64,000 nucleotides of DNA, from positions 2,157-66,156 of the forward strand of contig JBAZRE010000003.1 of NCBI GenBank assembly GCA_041663025.1. Reading direction: 5' to 3'. The notes under the pieces were generated by a model that saw only the letters and a list, made by a program, of their open reading frames with translations, searched no databases and was not told the origin of the DNA. The DNA comes from Minisyncoccota bacterium. Lineage in GTDB: Bacteria; Patescibacteriota; Minisyncoccia; Phycocordibacterales; Phycocordibacteraceae. How positions within the stretch are numbered: position 1 is the first letter of the stretch; the number at the start of each line of letters is the position of its first letter. Position numbers and translations under genes: made by a program. Positions 7,553 to 23,962 of this stretch are shown here, piece by piece.

Positions 7553-7559
7553 TTTTCTG

Positions 7560-7632
7560 TGCGCCCGCCGCGGCTCGAACGCGGGACCTTATCCTTAAAA
7601 GGGATCTGCTCTACCAACTGAGCTACGGGCGC
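7560..7632 (-). tRNA. tRNA-Lys (anticodon TTT)
   Basis: Reverse complement GCGCCCGTAGCTCAGTTGGTAGAGCAGATCCCTTTTAAGGATAAGGTCCCGCGTTCGAGCCGCGGCGGGCGCA folds as a cloverleaf. It has a 7 bp acceptor, a GTTCGAG T-loop, and anticodon loop CTTTTAA. Confidence 0.8.
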
Positions 7633-11687: not shown

Positions 11688-11800
11688 CTCTGGGCCGTGA
11701 ACGCGAACTGGAACTCCGGCAACGACGGGTGGAACGTTGAAGCCAATTCGGTCGAGAACCCGAATAGGTGGAGTGCCGACAATCAGGTCGTCTCCCGCAA
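11688..11800 (+). repeat. DGR-1 template repeat (TR1), 113 bp
   Basis: Asn-codon (AAC) rich copy of VR1. Reading frame LWAVNANWNSGNDGWNVEANSVENPNRWSADNQVVSR. Followed by a hairpin plus T-run at 11812-11840. Confidence 0.9.
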
Positions 11801-12208
11801 CTCTCGTCTTTTCCCGTCTCCACTTGGAGGCGGGTTTTTCGCTATAATACCTCTCTTCCATCCACCGACCATGCGTCCTATTTCTTCAACATCTTTCCCG
11901 AGTGATATAAAATGGCTCTGCGCCATGAGTCCTGATTCCCACGCGATTTGGATAAAGAAGCGAACAGCATCAACAGCACGAATTGCTTCTTCAAGTGGGG
12001 GCAATTTTTGGTCGATCGATGCGTATGCGGTTTTACGTAGTGCGTCTAATAAGTTAAGCCAGAGCTTGTCGATCCGGTCACCAATACCGAAGCGCTCTGA
12101 ACGCGCCATTTTCCGATGAGCGACGAGCCAAATTTTGTAAGCGACTTTAGCTCGCTCAATCACCGGCAAAAGCTTCTGGGGGGGGGTTACTTCTAGGAAG
12201 AAATTCAC
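11783..12208 (-). CDS. avd: Avd-like accessory variability determinant (four-helix-bundle protein, 23S rRNA IVS protein family)
   Basis: 141 aa with heptad-rich helical pattern FGIGDRIDKLWLNLLDALRK...EEIGRMVGGWKRG resembling phage BPP-1 Avd and PF05635 proteins. It lies between TR1 and the RT but on the opposite strand. Its N-terminus overlaps the poly-G tract as poly-Pro. Confidence 0.7.
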   Translation of the reverse strand: MNFFLEVTPPQKLLPVIERAKVAYKIWLVAHRKMARSERFGIGDRIDKLWLNLLDALRKTAYASIDQKLPPLEEAIRAVDAVRFFIQIAWESGLMAQSHFISLGKDVEEIGRMVGGWKRGIIAKNPPPSGDGKRRELRETT

Positions 12209-13187
12209 TCATACGTATGAGAGTATCATTTCGGTTGAAAATATTCTCGGCGCGTGGCGAGAATTTATAAAAGGGAAGAGGAAACGTACTGACGTACAAG
12301 AATTTGAAAGATATTTGATGCATAACGTTTTAGAACTGCACCAAGAACTCGTGGCAGGCACCTATCAACATGGCGGCTATCACCATTTCAAGATCAGCGA
12401 CCCCAAGCCGCGCGACATTCATAAAGCGAGTGTGCGTGACCGACTGGTACACCACGCTCTTTATCGTCAACTCTATCCATTTTTTGACAAAACGTTCATC
12501 AGCGATTCGTATTCATGCCGAAGAGAGAAGGGGACACATAAGGCGATGAACCGCTTCAGAGCCTTTGCGCGCAAGGTTTCTAAAAATAATACGCGCACCT
12601 GTTGGGTGTTGAAGTGCGATATCAGAAAATTCTTCGCATCTATCGATCAAGCCAAACTCATACAGATTCTTAAACAGCGAATATCAGACGAACGCATTGT
12701 CCAGCTTGTTGAGAAAGTCATCACGAGTTTCTCAAGTACTGAAAAAGGGAAGGGTCTACCACTCGGGAACCTCACCTCACAACTCCTCGTAAACATCTAT
12801 ATGAACAAGTTTGATCAGTTTGTTAAACATGAGCTAAAAGCAAAGCATTATATTCGCTACGCTGATGACTTTGTATTTTTATCATCCGACCGTTCATTTC
12901 TTACCTCACTTTTGCCCCTTATTCATAATTTTCTACATGACCATCTCGCTCTTGAGTTACATCCAGGTAAGGTCTCTATCAACACGCTTGCATCCGGCAT
13001 TGATTTCCTCGGCTGGGTGCATTTTCCAGACCATCGCGTTTTACGCACCTCTACCAAAAAGCGGATGTTCCGGCGTATTATAGAAACGAAAAGTAGGAAA
13101 GAAACAGTGCAGTCATATCTCGGCCTCTTGAGTCATGGCAACACACATAAACTGCAATCAGTTGCATTTTCTGACTACAACCTATAA
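12150..13187 (+). CDS. DGR reverse transcriptase (copy 1). Track ORF starts at TTG 12315, but the conserved RT N-terminus is in frame from 12150 with no ATG/GTG/TTG
   Basis: LPLGNLTSQLLVNIY is the DGR-specific [IVL]GxxxSQ motif (replacing QGxxxSP). RYADDFVF is the YxDD active site. Upstream in-frame codons encode ...KKFTHTYESIISVENILGAWREFIKGKRKRTDVQEFERYL, the conserved N-terminal extension of DGR RTs. Confidence 0.85.
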   Translation, partial: ARSITGKSFWGGVTSRKKFTHTYESIISVENILGAWREFIKGKRKRTDVQEFERYLMHNVLELHQELVAGTYQHGGYHHFKISDPKPRDIHKASVRDRLVHHALYRQLYPFFDKTFISDSYSCRREKGTHKAMNRFRAFARKVSKNNTRTCWVLKCDIRKFFASIDQAKLIQILKQRISDERIVQLVEKVITSFSSTEKGKGLPLGNLTSQLLVNIYMNKFDQFVKHELKAKHYIRYADDFVFLSSDRSFLTSLLPLIHNFLHDHLALELHPGKVSINTLASGIDFLGWVHFPDHRVLRTSTKKRMFRRIIETKSRKETVQSYLGLLSHGNTHKLQSVAFSDYNL

Positions 13188-13210: not shown

Positions 13211-13477
13211 ATGGCAATTACCAGTTCAGCAAAGAAGGCGATCCGCTCCTCGGGGCGGAAGCATGTCTTTAACCTGCGTCGCAAGGGGGCGCTTCATGAC
13301 ACGACTAAGTCGTTCACCAAAGCGCTTGCTGCCAAGGATGTGAAGGGTGCAGAAAAGCTCCTCCCCGCAGCCTATAAGGCAATCGACAAGGCCTGCAAGA
13401 GTGGGATCATCAAGAGCAACACCGCAGATCGCAAGAAGGCGCGTCTCGCCGCCTCAATCAAACGCGCACAAGCGTAA
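13211..13477 (+). CDS. rpsT: 30S ribosomal protein S20
   Basis: 88 aa. MAITSSAKKAIRSSGRKHVFNLRRK...KARLAASIKRAQA is the typical S20 basic helical protein. Confidence 0.85.
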   Translation: MAITSSAKKAIRSSGRKHVFNLRRKGALHDTTKSFTKALAAKDVKGAEKLLPAAYKAIDKACKSGIIKSNTADRKKARLAASIKRAQA

Positions 13478-13757: not shown

Positions 13758-13805
13758 GCACAGAAATAGAAAACACCGCGCAGGCGGTGTTTTCTATTTC
13801 TGTGC
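13758..13805. terminator. Perfect 22 bp-stem hairpin abutting the 3' end of tRNA-Arg(GCG); likely terminator or processing signal
   Basis: gcacagaaatagaaaacaccgc / gcag / gcggtgttttctatttctgtgc. The last 3 nt are the tRNA 3' end. Confidence 0.5.
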
Positions 13806-13875
13806 CCCCACGAGGAATCGAACCTCGATTACGACCTCCGCAAGGTCGCGTCCTGATCCGTTGAACGACAGGGGC
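13803..13875 (-). tRNA. tRNA-Arg with anticodon read as GCG (unusual isoacceptor, tentative)
   Basis: Reverse complement GCCCCTGTCGTTCAACGGATCAGGACGCGACCTTGCGGAGGTCGTAATCGAGGTTCGATTCCTCGTGGGGGCA. Anticodon stem CGACC/GGTCG with loop TTGCGGA. T-arm CGAGG/CCTCG. Acceptor has two G-U pairs. Confidence 0.6.
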
Positions 13876-13880
13876 GGTAT

Positions 13881-14288
13881 TTACTCTTCGTACTTCTGTG
13901 CAATCTGTTGTCCGAGTGAGAGAAGCTCTCTTAGTATCGAACTACCGGAATAGACGATAGAACAGATGCCTCGAAAGTTTTTCCGAAAACGCTTCAGCAC
14001 ACTTCGCTTTTTAACATAGATTTTACCAAATTGCGACTCTGGTACCCCGAGAAGCTTTGACCAGAAGGCAATTGATTCACGATGTTTATGATAATAATGG
14101 AGGTGTAAACGGACACGGATCTTACTTTCATCTAATGAATACGATGATCGTAGGAGTGTTAAATATAATTTTGCCAACGCAGGATCCGTATTTACGAACT
14201 TCATTTGAGCTTTTGCTCCCTCTGCCCAGTACAACATGGCAAGGAGCGATTTTTGGACGTTTTTATCCTTGATTGGTAACCGTATCAA
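13881..14288 (-). CDS. Putative single-motif LAGLIDADG-family homing endonuclease; ends 5 nt upstream of tRNA-Arg(GCG)
   Basis: 135 aa. SLLAMLYWAEGAK resembles the LAG(L/F)(I/V)DGEG motif. Basic C-terminal region KIYVKKRSVLKRFRKNFRG is typical of DNA-binding endonuclease tails. Assignment is weak. Confidence 0.4.
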   Translation of the reverse strand: MIRLPIKDKNVQKSLLAMLYWAEGAKAQMKFVNTDPALAKLYLTLLRSSYSLDESKIRVRLHLHYYHKHRESIAFWSKLLGVPESQFGKIYVKKRSVLKRFRKNFRGICSIVYSGSSILRELLSLGQQIAQKYEE

Positions 14289-14343
14289 TACCTTTTTGCT
14301 TTTTCAGAAGCTAGCATCAGGCGGTCCTCATGTTGTGGATAAG

Positions 14344-14817
14344 TTAGAATCCGAGCCAGGCCGCCACTAGATCGATGAAAGAGTGTGTGTGTTCGCTTTC
14401 CTCAACGTGTTGGATGAAGTGCAGATATACCGACTCAGCATCGACCCCTTCAAGTGGGATGACGAGATGCGGCGAAAACCACGTCTCATTCTTGATAGAG
14501 AGCAGGGGCGGCAATTCGCCCTCGATATCTTCAAGGATCGAAAAGGAGATCATATGGTCAAAGGAGTGGAGATCATCTCCAATAAACAATCCCTGCTCAA
14601 CGAGGCGAAAGCGGTGCAGGGGCGGCTGTTTAGCCGCATGGAGTGCGATGGTGGCAGCAGCAACGATGACCAAGAAGGCGAGCAGATAGTTGCCGAAGAG
14701 TATCGTCGCGATTGCTATCGCTGCAGCGATGATACCGAGTACCCAGTACCAATCAGCACTCTTCGGCACATGGTCGTATTCTCTCCCTTCCCATTCTACG
14801 AGTGCGGTGCGGGGCAT
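14344..14817 (-). CDS. Hypothetical membrane protein (2 predicted TM helices)
   Basis: 157 aa with hydrophobic segment WYWVLGIIAAAIAIATILFGNYLLAFLVIVAAATIAL. No recognisable motif. Confidence 0.4.
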   Translation of the reverse strand: MPRTALVEWEGREYDHVPKSADWYWVLGIIAAAIAIATILFGNYLLAFLVIVAAATIALHAAKQPPLHRFRLVEQGLFIGDDLHSFDHMISFSILEDIEGELPPLLSIKNETWFSPHLVIPLEGVDAESVYLHFIQHVEESEHTHSFIDLVAAWLGF

Positions 14818-17504: not shown

Positions 17505-17626
17505 TATTCATTTTATGTAACGCATTTTAAACCTCAGCGCAAGCAATCTCTACTAATAACTAGGGTGGAAATGATACGATTGTGCCAAACCTCTGGAATA
17601 TCTTGCCGAAGAAATAAAAACAAAAG

Positions 17627-17711
17627 CGGAGGAGGTGGGATTCGAACCCACGATGCCTTTCGACATGGCGGTTTTCAAGACCGCTGCACTAGACCACTAT
17701 GCGACTCCTCC
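17627..17711 (-). tRNA. tRNA-Ser (anticodon TGA)
   Basis: Reverse complement GGAGGAGTCGCATAGTGGTCTAGTGCAGCGGTCTTGAAAACCGCCATGTCGAAAGGCATCGTGGGTTCGAATCCCACCTCCTCCG. Long variable arm. Anticodon stem GCGGT/ACCGC with loop CTTGAAA. Confidence 0.8.
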
Positions 17712-17721
17712 AGAAACCTGT

Positions 17722-18003
17722 TTACTGCACCGGTGATGACGTGTGCACCGGAGCAGCTTCGTTCGACGGAGATGTGGCAGAAGATTTTGGACGATACCAG
17801 AGGAGATAAATAATCTCAAGGATGCCGAGAGTGTTGATGACGAGGAGGGCAATGAACCACCACTTCTGGCCGGCGCGTGCAGCATTCCAGAGAGAATAAC
17901 CTTTCAAAACAACAGTCCAGAGTACAACAACAAGGATAACAGGAACGAGGATAAGTGCCATCTGCGGTGTGAATGGGGAATAAAACGGTGTGAATGGTTG
18001 CAT
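17722..18003 (-). CDS. Small hypothetical membrane protein (2 TM)
   Basis: 93 aa. MALILVPVILVVVLWTVVL and WWFIALLVINTLGILEIIYLLW hydrophobic helices. No homology assigned. Confidence 0.35.
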   Translation of the reverse strand: MQPFTPFYSPFTPQMALILVPVILVVVLWTVVLKGYSLWNAARAGQKWWFIALLVINTLGILEIIYLLWYRPKSSATSPSNEAAPVHTSSPVQ

Positions 18004-22991: not shown

Positions 22992-23025
22992 AAAAAATCG
23001 AGTTATCCACTCGATTTTTCTTTAT
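22992..23025 (+). terminator. Intrinsic terminator after rplS
   Basis: aaaaaaatcgagt tatcc actcgatttttc: 7 bp stem followed by T-run. Confidence 0.6.
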
Positions 23026-23055: not shown

Positions 23056-23766
23056 ATGGGGTTGCGTGGACCAAAGCCTAGGAGAAGGGAAGTAATCTGG
23101 TCGCCAGAATTGGCGTACGCGATCGGGCTTATTGCGACTGACGGTTGTCTCTCAAATGATGGTAGACATTTATTATTCGTTTCTAAAGATCTTGAGCAGA
23201 TTAAAAATCTTAAGAAAGCGCTCGGACTTAAAGTAAAAATTGGTATCCATCGAGCAGGTGCTAGAATGAAAAACCGGCTTTATCACAGAGTGCAGTGGGG
23301 CGATGTCGTTTTCTATAACTTTTTACTTGAAATAGGACTTACACAGAACAAGTCTAAAACAATTGGAGTACTCGCTATACCAGACAAATACTTTTTCGAC
23401 TTCTTGCGTGGCAGCTTCGATGGCGATGGCTCCTTTTACAGTTATTTTGACCCACGTTGGAAATCGAGCTTTATGTATTACGTCAGTATAACTTCTGCAA
23501 GTTCATTGCACATCGATTGGTTGAGAGAAACACTTCATCGTCTACTTAGTGTAGACGGGCACATATCAAAAATGGGAGAAAATAGAGAAGATCGGAATCC
23601 AATATTTAATCTAAGGTTTGCAAAAAGAGAATCACTGCTAGTTATGAACGCCATGTACTCCACTTCTTGCTTGATACACCTATCTCGCAAAAGATTGAAA
23701 ATAGCGCGCGCTTTGCGTATAGTAGGGGAGTCATTGCTTTCGCGTAGAAAGAAATTGACGAAGTAA
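23056..23766 (+). CDS. Double-motif LAGLIDADG homing endonuclease; stop codon 1 nt before tRNA-Leu
   Basis: 236 aa with two canonical motifs LAYAIGLIATDGCLS and FLRGSFDGDGSF separated by about 95 aa. Confidence 0.8.
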   Translation: MGLRGPKPRRREVIWSPELAYAIGLIATDGCLSNDGRHLLFVSKDLEQIKNLKKALGLKVKIGIHRAGARMKNRLYHRVQWGDVVFYNFLLEIGLTQNKSKTIGVLAIPDKYFFDFLRGSFDGDGSFYSYFDPRWKSSFMYYVSITSASSLHIDWLRETLHRLLSVDGHISKMGENREDRNPIFNLRFAKRESLLVMNAMYSTSCLIHLSRKRLKIARALRIVGESLLSRRKKLTK

Positions 23767-23767
23767 T

Positions 23768-23851
23768 GCCCAGGTGGCGCAATTGGTACCCGCGCAGCCT
23801 TGAGGTGGCTGTGGTCGCAAGACCGTGGAGGTTCAAGTCCTCTCCTGGGCA
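23768..23851 (+). tRNA. tRNA-Leu (anticodon GAG), class II
   Basis: GCCCAGGTGGCGCAATTGGTACCCGCGCAGCCTTGAGGTGGCTGTGGTCGCAAGACCGTGGAGGTTCAAGTCCTCTCCTGGGCA. Anticodon stem CAGCC/GGCTG with loop TTGAGGT. Variable arm GGTC/GACC. Confidence 0.8.
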
Positions 23852-23962
23852 CTAAAACTAAATCGTGTTGCAGAACTTGTGTTCCTGCGGCTGGTCTGGT
23901 ATGACAGACAAAAGAAAAGAAAGATGGAAAAGGTCTTTGTACTTCAACAAAGGAGGTGACGA

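Follow-up and report, generated by a model that had tools for sequence, protein, structure and literature searches.

Our analysis of a 64,000-nt stretch of DNA from a Minisyncoccota bacterium (contig JBAZRE010000003.1 of GenBank assembly GCA_041663025.1; the whole stretch is hereafter called the window) indicates that a 135-aa open reading frame (ORF) located just upstream of a tRNA-Arg(GCG) gene probably represents a selfish cassette of the homing type that resides in the 5′ leader of a tRNA gene and is here in decay, a reading to which we give a probability of a little under 0.6. A wider proposal, for which we would offer slightly less than even odds, is that the candidate phyla radiation (CPR, or Patescibacteria) harbours unrecognised 'tRNA-leader homing elements', namely single-ORF cassettes derived from at least three nuclease lineages (a helix-turn-helix (HTH) plus LYWAEGxK family, LAGLIDADG_3 and HNH), which insert precisely at the 5′ ends of particular tRNA genes and are rendered harmless by RNase P in place of splicing. 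What would be new here is the occurrence of free-standing homing-type genes in a new niche and with a new protein family, to which the window adds a degenerate copy. Literature searches turned up neither this family nor homing-type genes in the leaders of bacterial tRNAs, the nearest case being SegB of phage T4.

A truncated gene upstream of tRNA-Arg(GCG)

The locus in the window comprises the following features, all on the minus strand:

13802-13875, minus strand: intact tRNA-Arg(GCG) identified by ARAGORN (Rfam tRNA match at 13803-13875, 51.3 bits)
13876-13880, minus strand: spacer of 5 nt (ATACC) that separates the stop codon of the ORF from the 5′ end of the tRNA
13881-14288, minus strand: remnant ORF of 135 aa with a TTG start and the motif LAMLYWAEG; its TAA stop codon is at 13881-13883
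14289-14329, minus strand: out-of-frame remnant of codons ~74-86, which reads EDRLMLASEKAK in another frame
14330-14343, minus strand: left end of the cassette, cTTATCCACAacat, and deletion junction
14344-14817, minus strand: conserved upstream gene of 157 aa without a Pfam match, used as synteny anchor
13759-13804, minus strand: perfect 23-bp hairpin directly 3′ of tRNA-Arg(GCG) (-41.7 kcal/mol, z = -9.1)

A preliminary description of this DNA had placed the end of the ORF 5 nt before the tRNA gene on the same strand, and ARAGORN, Rfam and the ORF list agree on these coordinates; the spacing suggests that the two are co-transcribed. The same 5-nt distance is found in related loci (L001/L101, L004/L111, L093 and L106), and sites in relatives at which the ORF is absent end in pentamers resembling the spacer, for example ACACT, which is present both at the empty site of L099 and at the occupied site of L106. 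The spacer is the kept end of the original tRNA leader.

A reading frame with the LAMLYWAEG motif is indeed present, as the preliminary description stated, but it is not an intact gene. The 296 homologues of the ORF in a large protein collection are nearly all 209-236 aa long and carry an HTH domain that the window ORF lacks. At E≤1e-3, an exhaustive HMMER search with the C-terminal domain returned 3065 clusters (at 50% identity), of which 1154 remain at E≤1e-10. Almost all of the clusters share a common architecture of ~220 aa, consisting of an N-terminal HTH of the transposase/resolvase type, a long helix and a C-terminal domain of ~130 aa. HTH_SB or HTH_23 is matched by 50-53 of 61 close homologues; among 116 diverse members searched against Pfam, HTH_23 is found in 99, HTH_7 in 54 and HTH_Tnp_1 in 27, and a profile of the diverse family matches the Sleeping Beauty PAI domain in the PDB through its HTH part (E=2e-4). 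The C-terminal domain has the invariant signature LYWAEGxK...N(S/T)DP...WS...P...F...K...G, and purifying selection on the family is strong, with ratios of non-synonymous to synonymous substitution rates (dN/dS) of 0.05-0.12. An intact cassette measures ~740 bp and contains a single gene of ~225 aa behind a promoter of its own, made up of a TTATCCACA box and, 5-12 nt before the start codon, a TATAAT-like box, which implies that the mRNA is leaderless or nearly so.

The 135-aa ORF corresponds to the C-terminal domain of this family, left over from a gene of ~225 aa that has been beheaded and frameshifted. Residues 84-222 of its closest homologue (P0001, 222 aa) match the ORF at 90% identity, and tblastn of P0001 against the window detects similarity from 14300 to 13884, from residue 84 onward only. 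When aligned with intact alleles, the window copy lacks ~265 bp, which in those alleles contain the TATAAT-like box, the ATG start and codons 1-73 with the HTH, and the deletion junction, at ~14329-14333, shows ACAT microhomology. Codons ~74-86 persist in the other frame, and therefore 1 nt has been lost in an A-run as well; this frameshift emerges from alignment to L093 and L106 and from comparison with the P0001 and P0002 sequences. The remnant at 14289-14329 also has an in-frame TGA (14304-14306), and no sigma-70-like promoter is left between 13400 and 15000. Every residue that is invariant in the family is retained in the 135 codons, and relaxed selection on the truncated copy was not found, dN/dS relative to L093 being 0.083, with five window-specific amino-acid changes versus four that are specific to L093. 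Since the invariant residues are kept and selection is not relaxed, either the lesion is recent or an HTH-less protein is still produced; the remaining codons would thus represent a very recent pseudogene or encode a residual protein translated from read-through transcripts. Shortened reading frames also occur in L019, L029 and L034, and a degenerate copy is as expected from the cycle of invasion, decay and loss of homing genes.

The hairpin that follows the tRNA gene overlaps its final bases and has no U-tract after it on the minus strand; it may act as a terminator that ends the transcription unit, or as a processing site. The tRNA-Arg of the window and of loci L090-L169 has the anticodon GCG and is usually followed by tRNA-Arg(CCG). 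The usual bacterial tRNA-Arg has the anticodon ACG (inosine).

Association with tRNA genes and variation at the tRNA-Arg(GCG) site

A scan of one genome per species identified at least 568 loci of the family, mostly in Patescibacteria, the best 80 of which (L010-L089) were analysed. An ORF was scored as linked when a tRNA on the same strand begins within -90 to +60 nt of its first in-frame stop codon. Linkage was observed for 69 of the 74 family loci with enough downstream sequence, compared with 17 of the 426 other ORFs on these loci that are 150 aa or longer. Intergenic distances are short throughout the window (a DUF5652 gene, for instance, ends 10 nt before tRNA-Ser), so that the adjacency could be imagined as an accident of a compact genome without biological meaning, but this is refuted by the difference in counts, and the specific pairing of protein clades with tRNA types likewise speaks against it; we consider chance adjacency extremely improbable.

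In a neighbour-joining tree, individual clades pair with a single tRNA: Arg(GCG), which is the clade of the window, Arg(TCT), Lys(CTT) and Gln(TTG), with smaller groups for Gly(GCC), Phe(GAA), Glu(CTC), Ile(TAT), Tyr, Trp and Arg(CCT). The first in-frame stop codon falls inside the tRNA in 33 of the 69 linked loci, usually at positions 8-10, 13-15 or 19-22 of the tRNA or within its anticodon loop. The ORF lies between two tRNAs in L048, L064, L076, L081 and L082, and L053 (2980-4380) contains a tandem pair of family ORFs followed by tRNA-Lys(CUU), an arrangement that repeated invasion of a single site could have produced. The tRNA is upstream, not downstream, of the ORF in L046 and L060. Members on contigs labelled as non-CPR (Omnitrophota for L046, L056, L061 and L064, Anaerolineales for L060 and Margulisiibacteriota for L037) nest among the Patescibacteria sequences in the tree and would point to transfer between phyla provided that the bins are correctly labelled; many assemblies carry labels that seem unreliable.

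Fragments of a tRNA 5′ end are present directly upstream of the ORF in L061 (28 nt), L016 (~40 nt), L042 and L050, in each case with an intact tRNA of a different allele downstream. When 76 loci were searched systematically for such duplicated 5′ segments, only ~4 had one, and none of these belonged to the window's clade. The preliminary description had raised such fragments as a possible sign of an intron; the fragments exist in these relatives, but the window has no intron at this locus and its tRNA is intact. An intron-encoded LAGLIDADG endonuclease or maturase within a tRNA would be in keeping with the fragments in these few relatives and with the LAGLIDADG-like motif, and group I introns do occur in bacterial tRNA genes (reviewed in PMC3984707). 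At the window locus, however, this is refuted because the downstream tRNA is complete and scores normally, because the Rfam scan matches no intron RNA family in the window and because the ORF is preceded by the end of a protein-coding gene, with its stop codon, rather than by a tRNA 5′ exon. We accordingly regard an intron origin as highly implausible.

The same fragments bear on a different explanation, in which the cassette moves by site-specific recombination or transposition. The HTH and C-terminal domain would then constitute a minimal integrase or transposase, the 5′ part of the tRNA would serve as the attachment site and a carried tRNA segment would rebuild an intact tRNA on the right-hand side. 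This explanation gains from the affinity of the HTH with transposase/resolvase families (HTH_23, HTH_7, HTH_Tnp_1 and the Sleeping Beauty PAI domain), from the tandem ORFs in L053 and from the tRNA alleles that travel with the ORF (see below). Yet most loci, including all close relatives of the window, show neither a tRNA fragment nor a repeat where the cassette begins on the left, terminal repeats were not observed, and the protein has no DDE, serine-recombinase, tyrosine-recombinase or HUH (His-hydrophobic-His) signature, the histidines of its 'HLH' sequence not being invariant. Moreover, the unrelated LAGLIDADG_3 and HNH genes that share this niche belong to homing-endonuclease rather than recombinase families. 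A recombinase is in our view an unlikely explanation.

At the tRNA-Arg(GCG) site, the order 157-aa gene, ORF, tRNA was conserved in the loci that were first fetched, but these had been selected for presence of the ORF and their appearance of a fixed host gene is thus biased. A test anchored on the 157-aa gene covered 80 metagenome loci with 62-81% identity, 72 of which extend sufficiently far downstream to allow scoring. Of these, 66 have tRNA-Arg(GCG) 15-100 nt past the 157-aa gene (182 nt in a single locus) and no intervening ORF, and in the remaining six the ORF separates the two genes; in L122 the contig ends within the ORF. Three of the 66 (L116, L126 and L127) have a family ORF before the next tRNA, Arg(CCG), instead. 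A tree of the 157-aa protein shows occupied and empty loci intermingled, the window grouping with the empty L105 and the occupied L093, and L116, with its ORF before tRNA-CCG, is 91.5% identical to the ORF-free L141 across 3.1 kb of upstream sequence.

The junctions can be read from these alleles. An empty site has the form 'TGA|TATACATTC...|tRNA', whereas an occupied site runs from the stop codon of the upstream gene through (A/T)TATCCACA, ~55 nt with the TATAAT-like box, the ATG and reading frame to its stop codon and then 5 nt to the tRNA. All occupied alleles begin with (A/T)TATCCACA, 1-3 nt from the stop codon of the upstream gene. The left junction of L153 differs in that the old leader, TATATACGTCTC, is kept ahead of TTATCCACA; the ORF DNA of this locus is only 61-66% identical to that of the others and its flank 70-75%, and therefore at least two cassette lineages use the tRNA-Arg(GCG) site. 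The ORFs linked to tRNA-Arg(CCG), a sister lineage, are 47-51% identical to those linked to GCG and ~30% identical to the TCT clade, and the 5′ halves of both tRNA-Arg genes are nearly identical in the ORF-free L141, which fits a past switch between similar tRNA-Arg targets.

The tRNA alleles vary together with occupancy. The D-loop sequence GGATCAGG is found in tRNA-Arg(GCG) at 5 of 9 ORF-occupied loci and at none of 66 others; such ORF-linked alleles are common to occupied loci with different flanking genes and absent from empty sites. The counts represent events that are not phylogenetically independent. The window has GGATCAGG, and its allele is identical to that of the occupied L093; similarly, L116 and L126 share a tRNA-CCG allele unlike that of the ORF-free L141 and L137. 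Co-conversion, co-transfer or target immunity would each give such a pattern.

Polymorphism of this kind, which the preliminary description had named as an indication of homing, is thus present at the site of the 135-aa ORF and also at that of the second unit of the window, described below, and because it holds for both, a mobile endonuclease family that homes next to tRNA genes, the first of the explanations offered in that description, is the best reading.

A further alternative is that the ORF is a host gene, encoding a dedicated HTH regulator or a factor that binds the co-transcribed tRNA or its precursor, and that it was gained anciently by paralogy and has often been lost. Its HTH domain, the strong purifying selection and the stable fidelity of clades to their tRNAs are all congenial to such a function, as are weak structural matches that include RNA-binding L7Ae-like proteins. 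There are also operator-like repeats. In L076, L068, L058, L040 and L079, inverted repeats of 8-12 bp based on CGAAC...GTTCG bracket the TATAAT-like box before the ORF start (ATCGAACTA...TAGTTCGAT in L076 and TTGAACCTATGA...TCATAGGTTCAA in L068), and the Arg(GCG) clade has the same pentamer as direct repeats, TGAAC...TGAAC. The repeats suggest a candidate operator for the HTH domain, and autoregulation through it would be compatible with homing or with a recombinase too. On the other hand, most close relatives have no ORF at the same tRNA, the organism of the window has lost the HTH, occupied sites are scattered on the tree of the flanking gene and two ORF lineages use one site. Unrelated nuclease families occur in the identical arrangement, and a stop codon inside the tRNA in about half of the loci would be odd for a co-evolved operon. 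We therefore judge a host function improbable, on a par with the recombinase.

The C-terminal domain and its proposed activity

The motif LAMLYWAEG resembles a LAGLIDADG motif: small residues occupy positions 2 and 7, position 8 is acidic and position 9 is glycine. Its L, Y, W, A, E and G together with the following K are 95-100% conserved among 76 diverse members. The pattern xAxLxxAEG followed by K also describes the second motif of I-DmoI, GLYVAEGDK (sequence confirmed in PDB 1b24), and the similarity extends to a subsequent strand ending in N and a helix (RIWNKNKALLEIVSRWL in domain 2 of I-DmoI, vxFtNSDPxmIklfxxWL in the family). An hhalign comparison of the 76-sequence family profile with this domain gave P=2.2e-4 and a probability of 45% in the correct register, with a score of 30.6 compared with 11.8 +/- 2.1 for shuffled sequences, none of which (0/200) reached 30.6. 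Unlike LAGLIDADG enzymes, the family has an N-terminal HTH fused to a single domain.

Database searches and structure prediction yielded a different picture from that expected of the LAGLIDADG-like ORF of the preliminary description. The 135-aa ORF itself matches no Pfam family at E up to 10 and has no match in NCBIfam, PHROGs or PDB sequences. No curated LAGLIDADG profile of Pfam is matched significantly; among 61 close homologues only three hit LAGLIDADG_3 (best E 0.017), and LAGLIDADG is not among the 25 most-matched Pfam families listed for the 116 diverse members. A set of 10 diverse members likewise gave no match. HMMER profile searches of the PDB returned only HTH matches. Two AlphaFold models are confident (pLDDT 89.7 and 89.3, the latter for m431e80c7b950, the model of the window ORF), and the predicted fold differs from that of LAGLIDADG enzymes.

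Several observations weigh against a homing-type cassette and deserve to be set out together. The C-terminal domain has no match among the families of Pfam, NCBIfam, PHROG or PDB and no similarity to the LAGLIDADG_3 family of the window itself (hhalign probability 0.3-1%), and a second alignment against I-DmoI was weaker (P=0.013, 3/300 shuffles). Its modelled topology is a-b-a-b-a-b-b-a (a, helix; b, strand) and not the LAGLIDADG core, a-b-b-a-b-b-a; the best Foldseek matches are weak, with template-modelling (TM) scores of at most 0.38 to OmpA-like, IspF and L7Ae-like b-a-b-a-b-b folds, and no LAGLIDADG enzyme is among the 50 best PDB matches listed. At the level of the locus, leftover tRNA 5′ fragments upstream of a few ORFs are unexpected from clean homing through double-strand breaks. 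Divergences of ORF and flank are broadly similar for most pairs, and much of the inheritance is therefore vertical; the neighbour-joining trees, for their part, were built on short proteins and without support values. Finally, the low dN/dS on the window branch means that the remnant may still be functional.

LAGLIDADG ancestry of the C-terminal domain is thus hinted at by the profile comparison rather than indicated firmly. A LAGLIDADG core with a shortened first hairpin and an inserted helix plus strand would reconcile the motif with the fold, but given the conflict between profile and fold evidence we do not file the family as LAGLIDADG. The E and K of the motif are the best lead to a putative active site. 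Two other assignments were considered and rejected. A serine recombinase of the IS607 type, in which an HTH precedes the catalytic domain, is contradicted by the lack of a resolvase profile match on the C-terminal domain and of YxRVS or DRLxR motifs. An HUH nuclease, suggested by the sequence RVRLHLHYYH, was discarded because the histidines are only 54-76% conserved across the superfamily.

If the locus is read as a homing-type cassette, the protein would recognise the 5′ part of its own tRNA gene together with the leader in an empty allele and would then cut, probably as a dimer, with the motif E and K as candidate active site. Repair from the occupied allele would copy the cassette in, often with the adjacent tRNA allele. 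Insertion would do little harm because RNase P presumably removes any tRNA 5′ leader, a role that equals that of splicing for intron-borne homing genes, and expression of the tRNA would be maintained by the cassette promoter or by read-through from upstream. In the window, the promoter, start codon and HTH were lost with the ~265-bp deletion, the 1-nt frameshift came afterwards, and tRNA-Arg(GCG) would now have to be transcribed from the upstream gene.

Nuclease genes in other tRNA leaders, and known systems

The second unit of the window consists of two features:

23056-23766, plus strand: double-motif LAGLIDADG_3 gene of 236 aa between rplS (L19) and tRNA-Leu(GAG)
23768-23852, plus strand: tRNA-Leu(GAG), 1 nt past the LAGLIDADG stop codon

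Here the assignment to a double-motif LAGLIDADG enzyme followed by tRNA-Leu, as made in the preliminary description, is borne out. The ORF matches LAGLIDADG_3 (PF14528) in two stretches with 31.1 bits (cut-off 22.5; E=2.8e-7) and a PHROG endonuclease family with E=3.8e-25, and its motifs, GLIATDGCL and FLRGSFDGDG, are conserved in 52 homologues, with D-G of the first and D-G-D-G of the second invariant. Both endonuclease-tRNA units of that description are therefore real as arrangements, but they represent two different protein families and not two copies of one. Kinship between the two ORFs was rejected, BLASTP giving E=5.3, hhalign the low probability cited above and the superfamily hidden Markov model (HMM) one window member only.

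A test of this site anchored on L19 (83-88% identical) showed the LAGLIDADG_3 gene between rplS and tRNA-Leu(GAG) in L170, as in the window, whereas in L171, L172 and L173 tRNA-Leu(GAG) follows rplS after 10-36 nt without it; in a fifth L19-anchored contig the gene is not among the listed genes. The more distant L008 and L009 are occupied as well. A third arrangement involves an HNH gene of 159 aa (L001 4261-4829, in L001/L002), which is located between a DUF5652 gene and tRNA-Ser(UGA), its end lying 4 nt upstream of the latter. The orthologous DUF5652 gene of the window (17626-18003, 63% identical) is followed by tRNA-Ser 10 nt later, with no HNH gene. In addition, L004 (9486-10394) has a 277-aa LAGLIDADG_3 gene, with a weak Pfam match, downstream of a tRNA-Lys(UUU) on the same strand and 0 nt from it, while tRNA-Lys(UUU) of the window (7559-7632) has no such neighbour. 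All three arrangements tested, among which the L004 gene is not counted, are occupied in some relatives and empty in others. At least three unrelated protein lineages, two of them from classic homing-endonuclease families, occupy tRNA leaders here.

Among known systems, the closest parallel is SegB, a free-standing homing endonuclease of the phage T4 tRNA gene cluster which is reported to be inherited favourably together with flanking tRNA sequences (PMC2330249). In both cases an intron-less gene resides among tRNA genes, and the family described here is sometimes situated between two tRNAs and is accompanied by differing tRNA alleles. SegB is a phage GIY-YIG enzyme, in contrast to a cellular CPR family with an HTH, an unclassified C-terminal domain and a putative cleavage activity, which forms many clades, each with one tRNA species, that end at or inside the tRNA 5′ end.

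Homing endonucleases of tRNA introns, such as I-Ssp6803I, carried by the group I intron of cyanobacterial tRNA-fMet, similarly represent selfish endonuclease genes that target a conserved tRNA gene and whose insertion is made harmless by RNA processing. In the present case, however, there is no intron or ribozyme, the ORF is in the 5′ leader and its removal would be the work of host RNase P. The combination of a LAGLIDADG-derived scaffold with an HTH in a bacterial protein is reminiscent of WhiA, a bacterial regulator with two degenerate LAGLIDADG domains that lack catalytic residues and a C-terminal HTH. WhiA is encoded by a conserved single-copy host gene that is not linked to tRNAs, whereas the family here has an invariant acidic residue and Lys, an N-terminal HTH and a polymorphic gene. 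More generally, tRNA genes act as safe havens for integrases at their 3′ ends and for the Ty3 and TRE5-A retrotransposons upstream of eukaryotic tRNA genes (PMC6101501, PMC5006619). As for those elements, tRNA genes would offer conserved, harmless insertion sites in gene-dense genomes, but the cassettes are single small ORFs at the 5′ end of bacterial tRNAs, unlike elements that depend on integrases or reverse transcriptases and on the Pol III machinery or the tRNA 3′ end.

If the homing-type reading is true, the tRNA 5′ leader would be a third hiding place in essential genes for homing-type genes, beside introns and inteins, which would account for the frequency with which nuclease-like ORFs are found next to tRNA genes in CPR genomes and would provide a function for a large unannotated family without a Pfam model. 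Its members would form a natural repertoire of proteins, each with another tRNA gene sequence as its target, and would be a new and programmable-looking type of tRNA-gene-specific DNA endonuclease. A further prediction would be that tRNA alleles are exchanged horizontally in minimal-genome organisms; since the elements would drag tRNA alleles along, they would shape the exchange and evolution of tRNA genes in reduced genomes. For annotation, ORFs that run into tRNA genes would be flagged as real rather than as gene-calling artefacts.

Other observations in the window concern short sequences upstream of genes and a region next to the locus. The box TTATCCACA was considered as an element-specific terminus and rejected, since it recurs six times in the window, always in intergenic positions upstream of TATAAT-like boxes and also before the second unit; it is therefore a general promoter-associated box and not the end of an element. 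The sequence TTATCCAC(A) is found at 1730, 14335, 23003, 51257, 57298 and 61145, i.e. six times versus 1.5 expected (0/100 shuffles reach six). Its copies are intergenic and on the strand of the downstream gene, roughly 25-45 nt before a TATAAT-like box, and the copy at 23003 forms the loop of the hairpin that follows rplS. TTATCCAC(A) is identical to the classical DnaA-box consensus; in this organism it looks like a general promoter-associated box.

Close to the tRNA-Arg(GCG) locus, a gene resembling bAvd (11783-12208, minus strand; E=1e-8 to bAvd of Pfam, short of the gathering score) is followed by a reverse transcriptase gene (12315-13187, plus strand; RVT_1 E=4e-24) that adjoins rpsT (13211-13477). 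The pair is found beside rpsT in L001 and L003 and is absent in L004 and L007, and the region from 11783 to 13187 looks like the core of a diversity-generating retroelement.

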